From a virus (taxonomy: Duplodnaviria; Caudoviricetes), in the IMG/VR virus record IMGVR_UViG_3300032327_001202, positions 1 to 64,000 of that record: a stretch of DNA of 64,000 nucleotides. One strand, written 5' to 3'. Both the position numbers and the translations under genes were made by a program. Of this stretch, positions 4,747-12,932 are shown one piece after another. Numbering within the stretch: position 1 is the stretch's first letter; every line of letters starts with the position of its first letter. The notes below the pieces were generated by a model. The model was given only the letters and a program-made list of their open reading frames with translations. It was not told the origin of the DNA and did not search any database.

Positions 4747-5856
4747 TTAAGAATCTAAAAATGTTTCATTCTCTAATGTCAAGTATTTAGAATTAAGATT
4801 AATTCTCATTTGACTCTTGGAAAAATCACCATCCCGCTGTTTTAATAACTTAAATCTATATAAATTAATTTTTTTCATTTCATCCGTTCTTATTATCGCA
4901 AAGAATGTATCCGCTGTCTCCGCAATCGCTTTACTTTCAGGTACTGATTCTAATGTTATATCAGATGCATTCCAAGCATCTTTCGCTACTTGAACTGCTG
5001 TTAATACAGGACAATCATATTTAGCTGCAATTGCTCTTAAACCTTCAGCTATAGATTTACCTTTAGAATATAAATTATCTCCAGAAATACCTTTAACAGG
5101 AGCAATAAGTGTTATATAATCAATAATAATAAAATCTATTTTTATATTAGCTTTATCTTTTAATTTTTGGATAAAGAAATCAAAGTCATTTACAGTTGCT
5201 GTACCTGCTGCCCAAAACTTAGTGATAATTTTACCTATTTTTTTCTCAAATAAATCATCCGAATTACTTTTCAGAGCATTTATCTTTTTCATCATAAACT
5301 CCTTATCTTTAGATATTTCATCATAATCATTAATAGGGATATTTAACCTCATTGCTCCTAATCTTTTAAGAACCTTTTTTTCAGACATTTCTAGTGTAAT
5401 ATATAGAACATTATTACCTAAATTAGCAGCTCTTACTGCAAAGTTTTGCATCCATAAAGAATTATGACTTAATATATCATTTGTATAATATTGCTTACTA
5501 GAACCTTCTGAAATTTGTAAATCATACATATTTGATTTCTTACCATTTTTATACATTTCCATTATCATTTCAGGACCTGTTTTAGTCATAATAAAATCGC
5601 CAATTGATAAATTTTCACAATAAATTTCAGTTAAATCACATTTTTTAGTAATAAAATCCATGTTATCACACCGATATAATATATGTTTATCCGCACATAT
5701 TATATCACCACCATTATCCAATAATATATACCATTCTTCAAATTCTATTGTTTTACCAATACCTTCTATATTTATCCATCCATTGGGAGTTAATACTTCG
5801 TAATTTTTAACTTCATAGCCCTCAATAAATTTTTCATATAATATTTTTTCTTCCAT
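4747..5856 (-). CDS. gp41/DnaB-like replicative helicase, C-terminal part, preceded by a 132-aa C-intein
   Basis: Residues 1-132 contain intein block B (CADKH) and blocks F/G (MYDLQI...YYTNDILSHN). They are followed by S-LWMQN and helicase motifs YITLEM, IIIDYI, TAVQV, ESKAIAETAD, KQRDG. Confidence 0.9.
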   Translation of the reverse strand: MEEKILYEKFIEGYEVKNYEVLTPNGWINIEGIGKTIEFEEWYILLDNGGDIICADKHILYRCDNMDFITKKCDLTEIYCENLSIGDFIMTKTGPEMIMEMYKNGKKSNMYDLQISEGSSKQYYTNDILSHNSLWMQNFAVRAANLGNNVLYITLEMSEKKVLKRLGAMRLNIPINDYDEISKDKEFMMKKINALKSNSDDLFEKKIGKIITKFWAAGTATVNDFDFFIQKLKDKANIKIDFIIIDYITLIAPVKGISGDNLYSKGKSIAEGLRAIAAKYDCPVLTAVQVAKDAWNASDITLESVPESKAIAETADTFFAIIRTDEMKKINLYRFKLLKQRDGDFSKSQMRINLNSKYLTLENETFLDS

Positions 5857-6006
5857 TTTATTTTTATTTTTTTAAAAAATCTAAACATTTATTTAAATTG
5901 ACTTATGTCCCTGACTAATAGTGGTAAAGAGCGTTCCTATTTCAATTTTTTCTTCCTTACCAGTCAAGGTATTTCTTATATCTATAACAGTGGAAGAAAA
6001 AGAGCA
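5461..6006 (-). mobile_element. Atypically split intein in the helicase P-loop (IntN 5896-6006, IntC 5461-5856)
   Basis: Cys1 codon at 6004-6006; terminal His-Asn ends at 5461; +1 residue is Ser. Splicing would restore GK-S-LW. The 36-nt spacer holds two more in-frame stops. Confidence 0.85.
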
Positions 6007-6618
6007 TTTACCATTATTAGTTTCACTCATTAAACAATTTAATGTTCCTCTATCCCATCCACCACCTAACATAGTGTTAATAGTATTAAATCCTGAATTA
6101 ATTTTTAATACAGAACTATCTTGTGAGTGAGCTTCGGCATCATCAAAATCAGAACCTAAATCATCTTCTTTTATAAAGTTAGCGTTCATAGAATCTTCTA
6201 CGATAACTCTAATTTTATTAGCAATATCTGTTGTTTCTTCGATATTAGAAAGAGTTTCTAAATTTCTTGTTTGTTCAATAATGTCAGTAGTTCCATCTTT
6301 TATACGATTAGAAAGAATCCATGAGTTTATTTTTGGAAGAATAAAGTTCTTTTCATCATAATCTTCTATTTTAAGAGTTAACATTGACTTTAATATTTCT
6401 TTGGTAATTAATCCTTCATGATCTACTAAAGCCACCATTTCCCAAATTTGTTTAGGAGAAGGTATTTCTGCTTCTTTATTATTTAATACGTATTCTCTAA
6501 TTATTTCATATACGAATTTTAACTCATTATTCTTAAAAAAGTGTGTTTTAACTATGTGAAAAAATCTTTTATTTCCTAATATATACGAAAAGAATATTTT
6601 TTCTAATGAAATTGTCAT
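5893..6618 (-). CDS. gp41/DnaB-like replicative helicase, N-terminal part, ending in a 37-aa N-intein
   Basis: ...INSGFNTINTMLGGGWDRGTLNCLMSETNNGK|CSFSSTVIDIRN...: the Walker A GK is followed directly by an intein block-A Cys, and the ORF stops 37 aa later. Confidence 0.88.
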   Translation of the reverse strand: MTISLEKIFFSYILGNKRFFHIVKTHFFKNNELKFVYEIIREYVLNNKEAEIPSPKQIWEMVALVDHEGLITKEILKSMLTLKIEDYDEKNFILPKINSWILSNRIKDGTTDIIEQTRNLETLSNIEETTDIANKIRVIVEDSMNANFIKEDDLGSDFDDAEAHSQDSSVLKINSGFNTINTMLGGGWDRGTLNCLMSETNNGKCSFSSTVIDIRNTLTGKEEKIEIGTLFTTISQGHKSI

Positions 6619-6691
6619 AATTTTTTTTATTTTTTTACTACATTTTTAGTATATAGTTTTTTTAATATATACATAAAATGTAATACATAAT

Positions 6692-7429
6692 ATGCAAGTA
6701 TTAAAATTTAAGCAGTATAAAAACTCTATTGATCTAGCAACAGATTTTTTAGATTTGCTTGGATCTAAAATTAATGAAGATAACGTTGTGAATGATATCT
6801 TAAATAAAGTAACAAATGATTTAAAATTAAATTTTACTCTTATCACTTCTTTTGGTACAGGTATAAGTTTTATATATCCTATTGTTGATAATTTAATCAA
6901 AAATTCAAAACTAAATATAGATATGTCTATTGAAAATATAGTTTTATTAACTATAACTTCTATAAGTATATTCTATCTTGAATCAAGAAAAGGAAAAGTG
7001 AATGAAAAACTCGAAAAAGAAGTTAAAAATTTACTTGAAGAATTAAAACTTAGAGGTATAGGAAATGGTATTGTTAAAAAATTAACAGAATGTCTAAAAG
7101 CTCTAAATAACATCTTCATAATCCTACTTAAGAACACATATAAAACCATCGAATCTTTTGTTGATATGTTTAGTTATACTTCAATTTTAGTGCCTATTTT
7201 GAGTGCTATAACAACACTAGTATCTAAAAATAATTATAACTTAGATACTTTTAGTAATAGTTTTATTTCTTTAGGTATAGGTATTACTACATTAACTGCT
7301 AAACACGGTTTAAATTGGTTAATACAGAAGTTAAAAAATAAAATCTATTTAAATAACGATATTAATAAAAATATCGCTACTCAAATAGATGATACTCCTA
7401 ATTCTAATTCTATGATAAACGAATCATAG
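6692..7429 (+). CDS. Hypothetical membrane protein
   Basis: 245 aa with several hydrophobic segments; TTTAATATATA motif upstream. Confidence 0.55.
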   Translation: MQVLKFKQYKNSIDLATDFLDLLGSKINEDNVVNDILNKVTNDLKLNFTLITSFGTGISFIYPIVDNLIKNSKLNIDMSIENIVLLTITSISIFYLESRKGKVNEKLEKEVKNLLEELKLRGIGNGIVKKLTECLKALNNIFIILLKNTYKTIESFVDMFSYTSILVPILSAITTLVSKNNYNLDTFSNSFISLGIGITTLTAKHGLNWLIQKLKNKIYLNNDINKNIATQIDDTPNSNSMINES

Positions 7430-8689
7430 TTTAACATTTACTCTTTTAATAGATTCTTGAAACCAAATAGGTAAATATTCTGAACTATATTTGATAATAT
7501 CTCCAAAAGATCCATCTATAATTATAGTATCAGCAAAGTCCGTTTTTGAACGAATACTTCTACCACACATTTGTTGTAAAATAGCACAGGTTTTCCATGC
7601 ATACCATTCAGGATTATTCTTCTGTCTTAGTTTATTTTTTTGTGAAGCTAAACTAGGATAAGGTACTTTTGCTATAATCTGAAATCTGCTTTTATCACCA
7701 TCAAAAGATACCCCTGTTGATATACTTGGTGATATTAAAACAGTTGGATCATCTGAATCAAAATGCTTTTTTAACATTTCTGTTTTATTAGCAGAATCAT
7801 GAAACAATAATCTTTTGTTTTTTATATCATTTTTAATCCAAGTTGATAATTCAAAAGAATTAGTATGTATAATTCCTTTACTATCTTTATACTTATTAAG
7901 TATTTTGTCTAAATAACTTTTGTAATTGATAAAAGTTTCTTCTTTTTTAGCATATGACATCTTACCTAATGGCATATAAAATATTTGTCTATTTTCAATA
8001 GGAAATGGAGAAGGTATAGAATAATATACACATTTTTTTAAATCCAATCCATTCAATTCTGAAAAGATTTTCTTACTTAAAATAGTACCTGACATTAATA
8101 TAACAGTATCATAATTATCCCATACATATTTATTCAAATACTTATATGACCATATTGGTTCTAATGATAATTCATATTGTTTTGTTTTATCATTATAACT
8201 TTTTTCCAAAACCCAATTCTCTCTATCATCATTATACTCCTTTAAGAAAACATCTATTTTAGTTTCATATTGTTTTAAATCTGCCATAACTTGTATAGAT
8301 TTAACATCATCATTAACATAATCTAAAATTTTAGATAACTTTAAATCTCTTTTAGTATTTTTAGCAGTTGATGGTGTACTAATCATATTATTAGTAGTTT
8401 GTGCTATTGTTAGTATAAGCTCTCCTTTAAAATATTCTAAGAATTGAATATAATCATCAATAGTAGCAACATATTTTAACTTACTTATTATTTCATCTTC
8501 ATTATCAAATCTTAATTTTTTAATTACGGTTTCTGTAATTTTTATTGAAATAAAATCTGACATAACTTCATCTAATAAATGGCAATTACTAACATTTAAA
8601 TTATTAGCAAAATAATTATGATTATCTTTAACTCTTAGATTATAAACATCTTCTTTATAATCTATTTTTTTTATTTTTTTTATTTTCAT
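7424..8689 (-). CDS. DinG/YoaA/XPD-like SF2 helicase, C-terminal part, preceded by a 35-aa C-intein
   Basis: MKIKKIKKIDYKEDVYNLRVKDNHNYFANNLNVSN|CHLLDE, then ILMSGTI, GIIHTNSF, STGVSF, IIAKVPYP, QQMCGRSIRSKTD and IIIDGSF motifs. Confidence 0.9.
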   Translation of the reverse strand: MKIKKIKKIDYKEDVYNLRVKDNHNYFANNLNVSNCHLLDEVMSDFISIKITETVIKKLRFDNEDEIISKLKYVATIDDYIQFLEYFKGELILTIAQTTNNMISTPSTAKNTKRDLKLSKILDYVNDDVKSIQVMADLKQYETKIDVFLKEYNDDRENWVLEKSYNDKTKQYELSLEPIWSYKYLNKYVWDNYDTVILMSGTILSKKIFSELNGLDLKKCVYYSIPSPFPIENRQIFYMPLGKMSYAKKEETFINYKSYLDKILNKYKDSKGIIHTNSFELSTWIKNDIKNKRLLFHDSANKTEMLKKHFDSDDPTVLISPSISTGVSFDGDKSRFQIIAKVPYPSLASQKNKLRQKNNPEWYAWKTCAILQQMCGRSIRSKTDFADTIIIDGSFGDIIKYSSEYLPIWFQESIKRVNVKL

Positions 8690-9830
8690 TTTTAAATTGT
8701 TTTAAATTTCTTATTAATTTTTCAGTACAAGATTGTTTTAATACTAATTTTTCATCATAATTATTTTTAAACCATTCATCAGTTATAATTACATAATTAT
8801 AACTATTTTCTTTTGCCCATTTTTCCGCATAAATAATTTTTACTTTTACTTTATCATCATCTAAATTAGATTTAGGTTTTATTTCATAAAAAGTTTTTTG
8901 AGAATGATCAACAAAATCAATTATATAGTTTTTATATTCATTATTATAAACATATGGAATAACTAATTTTTCATATAATAAATCAGGATTAAATAATTGA
9001 AAATATGCTTCCCAACACGATCTTAACTTTAAATTTATAATTTTGTTATTTCTTATAAAAGATATATCACATCTTGATTTTGCCCAACTATTACTTATTG
9101 GTGGTACAAACAACCCATCTTTTATTTTTTTCTTCATAGAAATAGATTGTTTTTTATAAGATTTTTTACGAGTTTCTTCAGTCATTTTATGACTAGTATT
9201 ATTATCACCTTTTTGTATATTAGAAAAATACAAACTAGCACATTTTTTACTACAAAACGGATATATATCTTTTGTATTTCTTCTTGGTAATAAACCAATT
9301 GATTTTTTATTATTATTACATTCTTTTATTCCACATTTTTTATCCCAATGTGATGTTAAATAGTTTTTAACATTCTCTAAAGTAATTTTGGGTAATTCTA
9401 AAATATAATCGTTCTCAATTAAAATTTTATCTAATTTTAGATTTAATCTTTCTTCACCTTTCATATTTAATATCTGTCTTTTTATTAGAAAAGATGATAA
9501 AAAATCATATATTTTATCTTTTTCTTCGTTTGTCATATATTATATATTAATAATATCATCATCTTCTGATAAATCTTCTACTTTTTTCCATTCTCCAGTT
9601 TTTAATCTAACTTTGTGATTCCCTGTTATTTTTAACATAACACCATTTTCCATTTCTAACTCATACATCTGTTGATTTTTACTAAGATTTTTATATACAT
9701 ATTCTACTTCTTTATTTTCATATTCATTAGTTTCTTCATTTAAAGTAAGTACATATTCACCTTCTTTTATATCTTTAATCTTTTTATCTTCCCCTGTACT
9801 CATTTTAATATAACTATCAGGATGTAAACA
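8585..9830 (-). mobile_element. Canonically split intein in the helicase DExH motif with nested endonuclease gene
   Basis: IntN 9543-9830 (Cys1 TGT at 9828-9830); IntC 8585-8689 ends Ser-Asn; +1 residue is Cys. Splicing would restore DE-C-H. Confidence 0.88.
8655..9536 (-). CDS. Free-standing endonuclease (TnsA-N/gp4-like PD-(D/E)xK) nested between the split helicase halves
   Basis: LRSCWEAYF...YIIDF...FYEIKPK...WAKEN..YVIITD, plus an N-terminal Cys motif (CGIKEC...FCSKKC). Confidence 0.75.
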   Translation of the reverse strand: MTNEEKDKIYDFLSSFLIKRQILNMKGEERLNLKLDKILIENDYILELPKITLENVKNYLTSHWDKKCGIKECNNNKKSIGLLPRRNTKDIYPFCSKKCASLYFSNIQKGDNNTSHKMTEETRKKSYKKQSISMKKKIKDGLFVPPISNSWAKSRCDISFIRNNKIINLKLRSCWEAYFQLFNPDLLYEKLVIPYVYNNEYKNYIIDFVDHSQKTFYEIKPKSNLDDDKVKVKIIYAEKWAKENSYNYVIITDEWFKNNYDEKLVLKQSCTEKLIRNLKQFKNENKKNKKNRL

Positions 9831-10331
9831 TTCATCCACAATTAATAATCTAGAATCTCTATTCTCTAATAACTTAGGAGTATATAAAGAATGTATTAAA
9901 TACAAATGAAAATTAGTTAATGAAACTCTACCACCAATATATGCTTCTTTAGCAGAATCATACGGACAAAAATCACAAACAGTTTTATTTAACTTATTAA
10001 ACTCTTTACCTTGAGCACAAGAACAACTATAACTTGAACAATTATAATTATCTTTCCCTTTTAAGTTGGTAATTGATTCGTATTCTTCGTCATATTGATC
10101 TTGAAGAATTTTACCAGGTGTAATTATATCTACTTTTGAATCAGGACTTACTATATTTAAAAACCATTGACTTATCATAAGTGCTAAATGACTTTTACCT
10201 GTCCCTACAGGTAAGTTCATTAGATAAAATTTATTATCAGGTTTATTAGCATGAATTTTCTTAACAAATTCTAATGCTTCATCTTGTTCTTTTCTTGGTG
10301 TGTATCTATTTAAATCTTCTCTTAATCCCAT
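9540..10331 (-). CDS. DinG/YoaA/XPD-like helicase, N-terminal part, ending in a 96-aa N-intein
   Basis: Q motif (PRKEQ), Walker A (PVGTGKS), Cys cluster, Walker B LLIVDE|CLHPDSYI..., intein block B ITGNHKV; ORF ends DDDIINI. Confidence 0.9.
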   Translation of the reverse strand: MGLREDLNRYTPRKEQDEALEFVKKIHANKPDNKFYLMNLPVGTGKSHLALMISQWFLNIVSPDSKVDIITPGKILQDQYDEEYESITNLKGKDNYNCSSYSCSCAQGKEFNKLNKTVCDFCPYDSAKEAYIGGRVSLTNFHLYLIHSLYTPKLLENRDSRLLIVDECLHPDSYIKMSTGEDKKIKDIKEGEYVLTLNEETNEYENKEVEYVYKNLSKNQQMYELEMENGVMLKITGNHKVRLKTGEWKKVEDLSEDDDIINI

Positions 10332-10346
10332 TATTTATTTTTATTT

Positions 10347-11342
10347 TTAATCTTCTAACTTTATTTTATCCCATAAAAACAAACAATCATCTTTTTTTAT
10401 TGATATAATTTCTTTATCTTCAATAAAAAAACAACTTTTTTTATTTCTCTTATGAAGAATTAAATCTTTTCCATATATATTTATACTATCTCCTATTTTA
10501 TAAAAAAATGAGTTTCTTAATACTTTATCTTTTTCTTCCTTAAACTTAAATATAAATTTAGAAGGTATTTTAACTAAATTTCTACATCTTCTTCCAATTG
10601 AAGATTCAGTCATATTTAATTCAACTGAGGCTTCTTTAATAGAAGAAAACTCTTTAATAAAATTTCCTTCTAAATCATATTGAATAATAGATTTTTTTTG
10701 AAATTTAGACATTTTTAATTTTAATTTATTATTATCAATAACTTTATTTCTATTAATTTTTATTTTTTCAATTGTTTCATCAGAATGCTTTTTACCAAAC
10801 ATAGGATGATTAATACCTATAACTCTATCAGATTGTTCTTGTTTAACTTTTTCTGTATGATGTTTTCCAAAAAAAGGATTTTTTTCCCCTAAGTTTATTT
10901 TACTAAAATGCTGTTTTTGCTCTTCAGATATTGGATTATTTTCATAAAATTTTTTTCTTGATAAAATTGCTTTTAATTTAGAATCTCTAGTTATTTGAAA
11001 ATCATAACCACCATTCCCACCTTCACATAGATTAGTTAAAGGTCCTGTATTTATGTTAATTCGACCAATTTTTGATATAACTTTTTTTTCTAATTCATAA
11101 GCTTTACTTTCCTCTTCTATATCATTATATATAATGATAGTTTTTATTTCTATATTATTTTCGTTTAATTTTTTTATTTTATTTGATTTAAAATCAAATG
11201 ATTTCGTTTTTTTAGACTGAGTGTACCTTCTACCACTGCCTTTTCCTACATAAAAAGGTTCGAATTCGAATTCTAAATCATCATAGATAAATTGTCCTGA
11301 TTTAGAAGAATCTAAATAAACATAAATGTAATATTTTTTCAT
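10347..11342 (-). CDS. GIY-YIG-type homing endonuclease with NUMOD3 and NUMOD1 repeats
   Basis: YIYVYLD...PFYVGKG..RY N-terminus; GEKNPFFGKHH and NHPMFGKKHS repeats; IIQYDLEGNFIKEFSSIKEAS. Confidence 0.8.
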   Translation of the reverse strand: MKKYYIYVYLDSSKSGQFIYDDLEFEFEPFYVGKGSGRRYTQSKKTKSFDFKSNKIKKLNENNIEIKTIIIYNDIEEESKAYELEKKVISKIGRININTGPLTNLCEGGNGGYDFQITRDSKLKAILSRKKFYENNPISEEQKQHFSKINLGEKNPFFGKHHTEKVKQEQSDRVIGINHPMFGKKHSDETIEKIKINRNKVIDNNKLKLKMSKFQKKSIIQYDLEGNFIKEFSSIKEASVELNMTESSIGRRCRNLVKIPSKFIFKFKEEKDKVLRNSFFYKIGDSINIYGKDLILHKRNKKSCFFIEDKEIISIKKDDCLFLWDKIKLED

Positions 11343-11393: not shown

Positions 11394-12932
11394 CTAATCT
11401 TCTAATTCTTGTTCTAATTGTTTAATTTCATCCAAAATTTGCTTTAATTCCTCTTTTTTCTTCATCATTATGTTTTTATTCTTTTTCCTATCACTAAATA
11501 CATCTATTAACATATTTATAGTAGGTGAAACTACTTTTTTAAAAACACAACCATTATTGCAAATAACTACATTATCAAAATCAATTTCTGTACCATTAGT
11601 ACAGAAATTTTTATTATTTGGGTTTTGAATTCCTACAAAATTTTCAGGTGAAATGTAGAATTGCATCTGGGTTCTGGGATAGAGGCTTGAAAAGTCATAA
11701 CAAACACACCACTTGTTCATTCCAACAATTGGGTCTTTAACAAATCCACCTTCTATTGTTCCTTCGTCACTACCTTCTTTTTCATCATCTTTAAATATGA
11801 TAGCGTTCATTTGATCTTTAAACCTATGTCTTAAAACTCCTTCTGTAATTGCTAATGTACCTAAATTATTTTTTGCTTTAGATAATACATCAGTAATTTT
11901 TATTCTTGATAAAGAACTTATCGCATAAATAATAGAGATATAGTTTTTGGCATCATGTATTTTTTGAACTAACACGGAATCCACCGCATTATAATACATA
12001 AAAGTTTCAAAATCATCTTCATATAATTTTTGTAAAGAACCATTATATTTAATTTTCTCTAATCCAATTAATTTATTAGATACAAATTCTAATTTAGAGG
12101 ATTCTTTAATCTTAATTGTAGTATCACAGATTTCATATAACTGCATATAATCAAAAATCATCTTATGTGCAGGCATTTCATAATCTTTCAACCAAATTTT
12201 ATTCATTTTTTTGGTTGGAGATGCTACCGCAGGATCAATAGTTATTTCTTTACCATTAATTTTCTTTTTTAATTTTCTTGACCTATTAACTAAATAAATC
12301 CAGTCATAGTTAACAAAGTTCCATCCTGTCATAACAGACATTTTTGGAACCATCGTATTAAAAAAGTTATACATCATATCAAATTCTGAATCGTATTTAA
12401 CATACTTAAACTTATATGTTGTTCCTAATTTTTTAAAGTATTTATTAGTATTATCTAATATACGTGTTTGTGTTTCACTTGATAAATCTTTTAATCCTAA
12501 AAGGATTATTTTATCTTCATAAACAATAGATATTGAAAGAACTTTTGTAGCTGCGCCTTCTTTAACTACATTTCCTGCTTCATCTTTAATATCAGCGGCT
12601 TCAGGAAATCCATCTACTATTTCAGTTTCAATATCTATAAAATAGATATTGGGTAAATTAAATTCAAAGATTTCTTCTCTTTCATTTTCGGGAAGAGTGT
12701 CTAAAAATTCATAAATAGAATATCTATTTGGGTATGGTGAATCTACTAATTTAATAGATTTACCATCCCATGATTTATATTTTTGATCTTTTTCAGAATC
12801 TTCATCATCACAAACTACGTATTTTTTGGGATTTGGCCATTTATAGTATTTTAGTTTAATATTTCCTGACTTATCGACATAGGAAACTACTAAATTTTTT
12901 GTACTTGGTAGGTATTGAGTATCAACTAGCAT
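11394..12932 (-). CDS. Family-B DNA polymerase, N-terminal part (3'-5' exonuclease through motif A)
   Basis: FIDIET (ExoI), GWNFVNYDW (ExoII), YNAVDS (ExoIII), GGFV..P, YDFSSLYP. Ends in a coiled coil before motifs B and C. Confidence 0.9.
   Translation of the reverse strand: MLVDTQYLPSTKNLVVSYVDKSGNIKLKYYKWPNPKKYVVCDDEDSEKDQKYKSWDGKSIKLVDSPYPNRYSIYEFLDTLPENEREEIFEFNLPNIYFIDIETEIVDGFPEAADIKDEAGNVVKEGAATKVLSISIVYEDKIILLGLKDLSSETQTRILDNTNKYFKKLGTTYKFKYVKYDSEFDMMYNFFNTMVPKMSVMTGWNFVNYDWIYLVNRSRKLKKKINGKEITIDPAVASPTKKMNKIWLKDYEMPAHKMIFDYMQLYEICDTTIKIKESSKLEFVSNKLIGLEKIKYNGSLQKLYEDDFETFMYYNAVDSVLVQKIHDAKNYISIIYAISSLSRIKITDVLSKAKNNLGTLAITEGVLRHRFKDQMNAIIFKDDEKEGSDEGTIEGGFVKDPIVGMNKWCVCYDFSSLYPRTQMQFYISPENFVGIQNPNNKNFCTNGTEIDFDNVVICNNGCVFKKVVSPTINMLIDVFSDRKKNKNIMMKKKEELKQILDEIKQLEQELED

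Follow-up and report, generated by a model that had tools for sequence, protein, structure and literature searches.

The 64,000-nucleotide stretch of viral DNA analysed here (positions 1 to 64,000 of IMG/VR virus record IMGVR_UViG_3300032327_001202; hereafter the window) carries a gene for a DinG/XPD-like helicase that is distributed over three adjacent open reading frames (ORFs). The first encodes the N-terminal part of the helicase followed by the N-terminal half of an intein (IntN), the second a predicted TnsA-like endonuclease, and the third the C-terminal half of the intein (IntC) followed by the rest of the helicase (Table 1). All frames are intact across the whole locus under translation table 11, and only three nucleotides separate the IntN stop codon from the ATG of the nuclease. 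The original prediction for this region had given the span 7424-10331, the lengths of 96, 293 and 35 amino acids for IntN, nuclease and IntC, and the abutting or overlapping arrangement of the ORFs, all of which held on re-checking. With about 24% GC, the window is rich in AT; it belongs to a record of 82.8 kb with an estimated completeness of 15%. Since the record is so incomplete and the closest deposited relatives, the uncultured phages LR745206 and LR756502, each exceed 630 kb, these comparisons identify the window as part of a huge-phage genome.

Table 1. Features of the fractured helicase locus and its neighbours in the window (aa, amino acids; nt, nucleotides)
Feature	Position	Strand	Length	Remarks
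ORF for helicase N-part and IntN	9540-10331	(-)	263 aa	
ORF for free-standing nuclease, predicted TnsA-like PD-(D/E)xK enzyme	8655-9536	(-)	293 aa	N-terminal helical domain, 4-Cys finger C68/C73/C95/C99, nuclease core
ORF for IntC and helicase C-part	7424-8689	(-)	421 aa	
N-extein (helicase residues 1-167)	9831-10331	(-)		Walker A GTGKS; conserved Cys cluster; C-end LLIVDE (motif II/Walker B); ResIII
IntN (CLHPD...ITGNHKV...DDDIINI)	coding 9543-9830; TAA stop 9540-9542	(-)	96 aa	Pfam Hint
IntC (MKIKKIKKIDYKEDVYNLRVKDNHNYFANNLNVSN)	8585-8689	(-)	35 aa	Pfam Intein_splicing positions 122-152; start MKIKKIKKIDY, end NLNVSN|CH
C-extein (helicase residues 168-553)	7424-8584; stop 7424-7426	(-)		First residue Cys+1 (CHLLDEVMSDF...); Helicase_C_2
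Inserted cassette (IntN, nuclease, IntC)	8585-9830	(-)	1246 nt	From blastn of L021/L044 against the window
Out-of-frame overlap of nuclease 3' end (..NENKKNKKNRL*) and IntC start	8655-8689	(-)	35 nt	
Terminator-like hairpin just 3' of helicase C-part	7343-7390	(-)		Fits a single transcript for the three ORFs
Neighbour: DnaB/gp41-like helicase	4747-6618	(-)		Split
Neighbour: GIY-YIG-type homing endonuclease	10347-11342	(-)	331 aa	NUMOD3 and NUMOD1
Neighbour: family-B DNA polymerase	11394-12932	(-)	512 aa	Exonuclease domain, coiled-coil-like tail

The intein interrupts motif II of the helicase between its Asp-Glu and Cys-His residues (LLIVDE|CLHPD ... VSN|CH, with bars at the borders of the intein). 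Its N-part matches the Pfam Hint model with 33.9 bits against a cut-off of 29.7, while the scores for Intein_splicing (33.4 bits for the N-part and 23.8 for the C-part) both lie below the cut-off of 35.8 because that domain is split over two ORFs. The DE|C junction with its Cys1 and the block B motif TGNH are present in all 115 homologous N-fragments that were parsed, and a 35-residue IntC ending in VSN|CH is present in all 13 split C-parts of the DinG type. The two halves have net charges of -8 (IntN) and +4 (IntC), which together with the Hint match bears out the earlier description of a split intein within the DExH box, with an acidic IntN tail and a basic IntC start. A contiguous allele of 687 residues (P0337), the only one among the best 120 homologs, has the same intein at the same site as a mini-intein without a nuclease, with weak PDB matches to the mini-inteins of Npu DnaB and Npu DnaE. 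On these sequence features the element is assigned to the class-1 inteins, with its split at the canonical endonuclease-insertion point.

The intein halves also appear to be maintained by selection. Among pairs of occupied loci that exclude the window, IntN has a ratio of nonsynonymous to synonymous change (dN/dS) of 0.06-0.14 and IntC one of 0.01-0.05. Both ratios are higher in the two pairs that include the window (0.32-0.55 and 0.12-0.15, respectively), and the exteins of occupied alleles give 0.09-0.31. Since the splicing residues are conserved, the sizes of the halves and the position of the break are canonical, and dN/dS is low, we infer that the two halves trans-splice.

What does the helicase look like when the cassette is absent? 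The original prediction had proposed a survey of relatives for uninterrupted alleles, and such alleles were indeed found, some of them near-identical to the window. In LR745206 and LR756502, the same neighbourhood holds an uninterrupted gene of 555 amino acids, in which the site reads LIVDEAHDF and LIVDESHEF. Near-identical phages (97-99% amino acid identity) have an unbroken 553-residue gene reading LIVDECHLLDEVMSDF. A search with the C-extein returned unbroken 553-residue alleles (P0318-P0328) with 90-99% identity to the window over that part, and the junction in all ten unbroken 553-residue alleles, RLLIVDECHLLDEVMSDF, is the window N-extein joined to the C-extein. The predicted spliced protein equals the natural unbroken protein across the junction.

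The comparison is equally sharp at the DNA level. Locus L021, aligned to the window by blastn (as was L044), lacks exactly the 1246 nucleotides of the cassette. Its positions 6001-6501 are 96.5% identical to the N-extein side of the window (10347-9828 aligned), and its positions 6502-7386 are 96.8% identical to window 8584-7700. Because a near-identical intein-less allele lacks exactly 8585-9830, chance does not explain the layout. Moreover, since occupied and empty alleles differ by only about 3% in their flanking DNA, apart from the exact cassette, the putative homing site is known with single-base precision: the empty-site junction is GTGGATGAA|TGYCAT, and L021 itself has GTGGATGAA|TGTCAT.

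The only differences close to this junction are two synonymous changes, between window 8576-8582 and L021 6503-6510, at C-extein positions +3 (TGC/TGT) and +9 (TTA/TTG). The chance of at least two differences within the first nine nucleotides of the C-extein is roughly 3%, and the closest difference between the window and L021 on the N side is at -67. The two changes may be a mark of co-conversion or of target immunity, but as a sign of either they are too weak to use.

The history of the cassette, as reconstructed from sequence comparisons, disagrees with that of the helicase. Between the occupied loci L006 and L007, the proportion of synonymous differences (pS) is 0.27 in the nuclease, 0.33 in IntC, 0.52 in IntN and 0.55-0.65 in the exteins; the nuclease and IntC are less diverged than the exteins, and the cassette is therefore younger than its host genes. 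Extein and IntN identities across 861 pairs of DinG-type N-fragments show a correlation of only r=0.30, and the conflicts run both ways. In P0052, the closest occupied relative of the window, the extein is 95% identical but IntN only 85%, and the accompanying nuclease (P0002) is 84% identical. On a tree of IntN sequences (n=129), the host label, DinG or UvsW (see below), needs 2 changes, compared with 36 in shuffles, so that jumps between helicase families were rare and most movement takes place between alleles of a single gene. The split layout recurs in many related huge-phage contigs. Taken together, these sequence comparisons mark the locus as a real and recently mobile example of a fractured gene.

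The middle ORF encodes a protein for which the original prediction had proposed a TnsA/gp4-like endonuclease, and this assignment is strengthened by family and fold comparisons. The Pfam model TnsA-like_N (PF08722) matches the window nuclease at 26.7 bits, against a cut-off of 26.5, and matches 26 of 27 members of its family, with a best E value of 1.9e-8. Metagenomes yielded 50 homologs of 268-341 residues with 43-85% identity. In the family alignment (A1), three of the four finger cysteines (C73, C95 and C99) are invariant and C68 almost so, a helix with the motif RS.WEAYF is conserved, and the residues E189, D207, D210 and E218-x-K220 are invariant, which is the classical PD-(D/E)xK set; the core has the consensus Y(I/V)DF.D...YE(I/V)KP. 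An AlphaFold (AF2) model built on A1, with a mean predicted local distance difference test score (pLDDT) of 85, found TnsA (1t0f_A) as its best match among 48,161 PDB representatives searched with VIA-align (Z 9.4, root-mean-square deviation 4.0 over 139 residues), ahead of Vsr (Z 6.2) and I-Bth0305I (Z 5.9). Foldseek against the PDB also ranked TnsA first, though weakly, with nothing at E <= 0.001. The modelled fold and the conserved residues thus predict a TnsA-like PD-(D/E)xK enzyme.

Other searches with the nuclease were less informative. PDB sequence searches with the protein alone and with the family profile found no relative, the I-CreI entries among their results being a short chance match, and no NCBIfam model matches the protein. 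Among PHROGs, the middle ORF matches phrog_15427, 'endonuclease', and weakly phrog_14892, 'head closure' (E 1.7e-7). The T4 head-completion nuclease gp4 is itself TnsA-like (PMC7824862), which explains both that weak match and the 'gp4' part of the earlier label. The gene is single-copy within the record, and in the pairs with less saturation its dN/dS values, 0.15-0.24, point to purifying selection. A NUMOD3-like motif suspected in the linker (G.NNTSH.MTEET...) was dropped, since Pfam NUMOD models gave no match even at E <= 10.

Known nucleases offer three points of comparison. To our knowledge, I-Ssp6803I is the only characterised canonical PD-(D/E)xK homing endonuclease, and it would be the precedent for a nuclease of this kind used for homing. 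I-Ssp6803I, which is named in PMC2677866, is intron-encoded, small and directed at a tRNA gene, unlike the window nuclease, and it is absent from both the sequence and the fold matches of that protein. The EDxHD enzyme I-Bth0305I (PMC3239194; PDB 3R3P) shares with the window protein a restriction-endonuclease-like fold, a free-standing position in fractured genes, and an N-terminal DNA-binding region followed by a C-terminal catalytic domain. Nevertheless, an EDxHD/Vsr-like assignment was excluded because that family uses a His as general base (PMC3239194) and no His is invariant in A1; in addition, the window family has the canonical E..D..ExK set, and the EDxHD and Vsr fold matches (Z 5.9-6.2) are weaker than that to TnsA. 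Finally, Tn7 TnsA (PDB 1T0F/1F1Z) is the top fold match and shares the PD-(D/E)xK catalytic residues, yet the window protein differs from it in its N-terminal helical domain and 4-Cys finger, in its location inside an intein, and in lacking a Pfam-detected TnsA C-terminal domain; there is no TnsB or TnsC among the neighbouring ORFs.

Cassettes of this type also occur in other host genes. Searches found 190 N-fragments with the intein of the window, including 43 classified as DinG-type and 86 as UvsW-type. The intein lineage of the DinG site (CLHPD..TGNHK / ..NHNY.AN..SN|C) recurs, together with a homologous nuclease, in UvsW-like helicases with UvsW_N, DEAD and Helicase_C domains, for example in a Lak-B2 phage (translated with TAG=Q) and in metagenome loci L010, L012 and L013. 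A tblastn search of deposited phages placed relatives of the nuclease in cultured phages as well. In the PhoH gene of Campylobacter phage CPt10, a related split intein (FVIVDE|CLHED...TGNHK / ...SKN|C) has a 373-residue TnsA-like nuclease between its halves. The large terminase gene TerL of T4-like phages, for example Yersinia phage phiR1-RT (L020, g166-g168), is split after YIDE|C, with a short IntN, a long IntC and the homologous nuclease g167 between them, and in Shewanella phage Thanatos-2 (L018, TH2_002/003) a short IntN, the nuclease and the N-part of TerL form a single ORF. The UvsW, PhoH and TerL loci differ from the window in their host genes, and the TerL intein is in addition atypically split, but in every case, DinG-type, UvsW, PhoH and TerL alike, the insertion lies directly after the Walker B Asp-Glu.

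Several of these relatives deserve comment in their own right. The CPt10 PhoH-like gene (L019, NC_027996 57667-60642; nuclease APL46_gp060) is annotated as a disrupted pseudogene when it is really fractured; its sequence suggests that PhoH is probably functional after trans-splicing, and the annotation of the record could be corrected. An in-frame fusion of IntN and nuclease, as in Thanatos-2, is also found in the UvsW allele P0184, and in the UvsW N-fragments P0145 and P0086 IntN continues in frame into a Cys-rich extension; these three may be intermediates between nested and free-standing endonucleases. The UvsW N-fragments P0190 and P0235 have two inteins each, an upstream contiguous one with a LAGLIDADG endonuclease and a split IntN at motif II, while P0198 and P0209 are UvsW alleles with contiguous mini-inteins.

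How could the parts of the window locus work together? We hold with good confidence that the locus is a fractured gene, in which the helicase would be made by trans-splicing and the middle nuclease would act as a homing endonuclease. The three ORFs probably share one transcript and have coupled translation; terminator-like sites number 3 where 0.3 are expected, and promoter-like sites show no excess inside the locus. The acidic IntN would pair with the basic IntC, and Cys1, the TGNH block, the terminal Asn and Cys+1 would then perform trans-splicing, yielding a 553-residue helicase with its DECH box restored and with the same junction as the unbroken alleles of the sister phages. During a mixed infection, the TnsA-like nuclease would cut helicase alleles that lack the intein, close to GTGGATGAA|TGYCAT, and the cassette would be copied in whole during repair of the cut allele. 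Homing endonuclease is the most likely role of the middle gene, judging from the sequence comparisons, and it is from sequence that we infer splicing activity, nuclease activity and the nuclease target.

A number of points weigh against this reading. The penultimate residue of the intein is normally a His that helps Asn cyclisation, a common but not obligatory feature, and here it is missing: as the original prediction had noticed, the window has Ser, which was confirmed there and in every relative checked, and CPt10 PhoH has Lys. Inteins without the penultimate His can reportedly splice, as Chen, Benner and Perler are said to have found in 2000, and since VSN|CH is common to all 13 split C-parts, the Ser is best read as a fixed trait of the lineage rather than a lesion. 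The starts of the internal ORFs have no Shine-Dalgarno-like signal, promoter or hairpin. The match of the window's own nuclease to TnsA-like_N is marginal. No second helicase is present in the record, but the record covers only about 15% of the genome, and an intact second copy may lie elsewhere. The polymorphism of empty and occupied alleles could just as well have arisen if an occupied allele recombined with an empty one and thereby lost the cassette precisely. Lastly, the L006/L007 gradient hints that the nuclease perhaps moves among intein-bearing alleles and not into empty ones.

This last point leads to the strongest alternative, a tentative one that we consider possible but distinctly less probable than whole-cassette homing. 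In this alternative, the nuclease homes into the intein itself: its targets are contiguous mini-intein alleles (P0337 would be one), which it cuts at the canonical insertion point, and the intein as a whole spreads only occasionally, through long co-conversion tracts or ordinary recombination. Such a route was proposed by Dassa et al. (PMC2677866), and contiguous mini-intein alleles exist, both at the window's own site (P0337) and in UvsW (P0198 and P0209). The outward rise of pS from the nuclease to the intein halves and then to the exteins would also follow from it, as would the presence of related nucleases in differently split inteins, like that of TerL with its short IntN. However, contiguous mini-intein alleles are rare, at 1 of the top 120 homologs, and the window and L021 differ by the complete cassette with exact borders, for which either homing of the whole cassette or its precise loss is needed.

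Perhaps instead the helicase gene is simply broken, either as a pseudogene or with its two parts held in a non-covalent complex by intein halves that do not splice. The missing penultimate His would fit this idea, and sister phages evidently live with or without the cassette. On the other hand, the remaining splicing residues are invariant in more than 100 homologs, dN/dS is low in the intein halves and the exteins (see above), and the split form has been kept across lineages that are about 60% diverged, all of which makes a broken gene improbable. It is harder still to see the middle gene as a housekeeping nuclease, whether for gp4-like head completion and packaging or as a helicase partner, and we regard this as highly improbable: the weak 'head closure' match, the TnsA-like nature of T4 gp4 (PMC7824862) and the appearance of Bax1, the nuclease partner of XPB, among the weak fold matches speak for it, but the gene is missing from sister phages with 97-99% identity, invariably lies between the two parts of an intein whichever of the four unrelated host genes carries it, has a history in conflict with that of its host gene, and is present in one copy in the record. 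Conservation, the near-identical polymorphism and the four unrelated hosts thus make both of these explanations unlikely.

That cassettes of this type recur at Walker B in four families of NTPases suggests that intein jumps between genes follow a general rule. In its strong form, the proposal is that the TnsA-like zinc-finger nucleases are a previously unrecognised family of intein-tied homing endonucleases that target the Walker B 'hhhhDE|' DNA of P-loop NTPases (DinG-like, UvsW, PhoH and TerL, with a single intein lineage in the first three); on the sequences in hand we would give this even odds. If it is true, specialisation for Walker B would explain how one cassette hops between unrelated essential phage genes, and the window would catch that hopping in the act, with near-identical empty and occupied alleles coexisting.

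The layout of the locus is already known, and no new principle emerges from it. Fractured genes have been described for gp41, IMPDH, DnaE, NrdA, NrdJ, ligase and terminase, among eight host types, with nucleases of the GIY-YIG or Vsr-like kind, an IntN of 88-105 residues, an IntC of 33-54 residues and overlaps between nuclease and IntC of 6-69 bp (PMC2677866). As in gp41-1, NrdJ-1 and IMPDH-1 (PMC2677866), the window has same-strand adjacent ORFs with intein halves and a nuclease ORF between them, its break lies at the canonical insertion point, its half sizes and its overlap fall within the published ranges, it comes from a phage, and its host gene is a DNA-metabolism enzyme; the original prediction of a fractured-gene layout therefore agrees with that survey, down to the overlap of nuclease and IntC. 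Unlike the published cases, the host is a DinG/XPD-like helicase cut at motif II, which lies outside the eight types, as does UvsW; the nuclease is of the TnsA-like PD-(D/E)xK type; and the penultimate residue is Ser. Some of the loci of Dassa et al. have a hairpin upstream of the nuclease, which the window lacks.

Both the host gene and the nuclease type are apparently new to fractured genes. Full-text literature searches, which covered few subscription journals, returned no description of a DinG/UvsW motif-II intein site or of a TnsA-type homing endonuclease. The original prediction had called the combination of a DinG-family host and a gp4/TnsA-like nuclease unusual, which is borne out for the literature but not for nature, where the 190 N-fragments and the PhoH and TerL cases tell otherwise; hundreds of examples are in the databases under the names 'endonuclease' or 'hypothetical protein'. 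To the fractured-gene repertoire, so far made up of GIY-YIG and Vsr-like/EDxHD enzymes, with HNH where no intein is present, the window adds a DinG/XPD-like helicase interrupted at motif II as host gene and, apparently, TnsA-like PD-(D/E)xK zinc-finger enzymes as a nuclease family. The intein is also a candidate new orthogonal natural split intein for protein ligation, with halves of 96 and 35 residues, Cys1 and Cys+1, a Ser-Asn end and a minimal native junction of DE|CH.

The host gene itself, an SF2 helicase, can be placed in a superfamily, in line with its earlier description as DinG/XPD-like. The C-part matches Helicase_C_2 (PF13307) with 56.5 bits against a cut-off of 25.3, the N-part matches ResIII, and both parts match phrog_2488, 'DNA helicase'. 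Many of the 555-residue homologs are annotated with PF06733 (DEAD_2), whereas the window N-part gave no such Pfam match; a Cys cluster of the form C-x4-C-x-C-x13-C-x2-C, a candidate for the 4-Cys Fe-S cluster of this helicase family, is conserved in all three of the window, L001 and L002. The unsplit allele P0323 scored below the NCBIfam equivalog cut-offs for YoaA (80.5 bits against 680), DinG (68.8 against 598) and rad3 (50.1 against 247). The sequence thus supports membership in the DinG/XPD/Rad3 superfamily only, and not orthology to DinG, YoaA or Rad3.

Is the Cys of the DECH box a product of the insertion? The best 120 helicase homologs comprise 96 unbroken genes, 14 split C-parts, the single contiguous mini-intein P0337, and 9 fragments or sequences that did not fit the pattern. 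Motif II in the 96 unbroken genes is DECH in 54, DEAH in 36 and DESH in 6. DECH is therefore native to much of the helicase clade and provides the Cys+1 required by the intein.

The genes around the fractured helicase show other traces of mobile elements. Directly upstream, before the family-B DNA polymerase (PolB), lies the GIY-YIG-type homing endonuclease gene listed in Table 1. In LR745206 and LR756502, the same slot is occupied by an unrelated gene of 213-221 amino acids on the opposite strand; a similar GIY-YIG gene lies near the slot in L006, and a LAGLIDADG-like ORF (a faint Pfam match) in L008. The intergenic slot between helicase and PolB appears to be a preferred site of free-standing endonucleases. 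On the other side, the adjacent DnaB/gp41-like helicase is also split, by an atypical intein with an IntN of about 37 residues (CSFSS...), a long IntC ending in SHN|S and no nuclease between the halves; it is intact in L006 and L007 (442-444 amino acids) and split in L008. The PolB ORF, with only 512 amino acids, might be taken for a truncated gene, but a form of 512-513 amino acids is also found in LR745206 and LR756502, and it is therefore conserved rather than locally broken.

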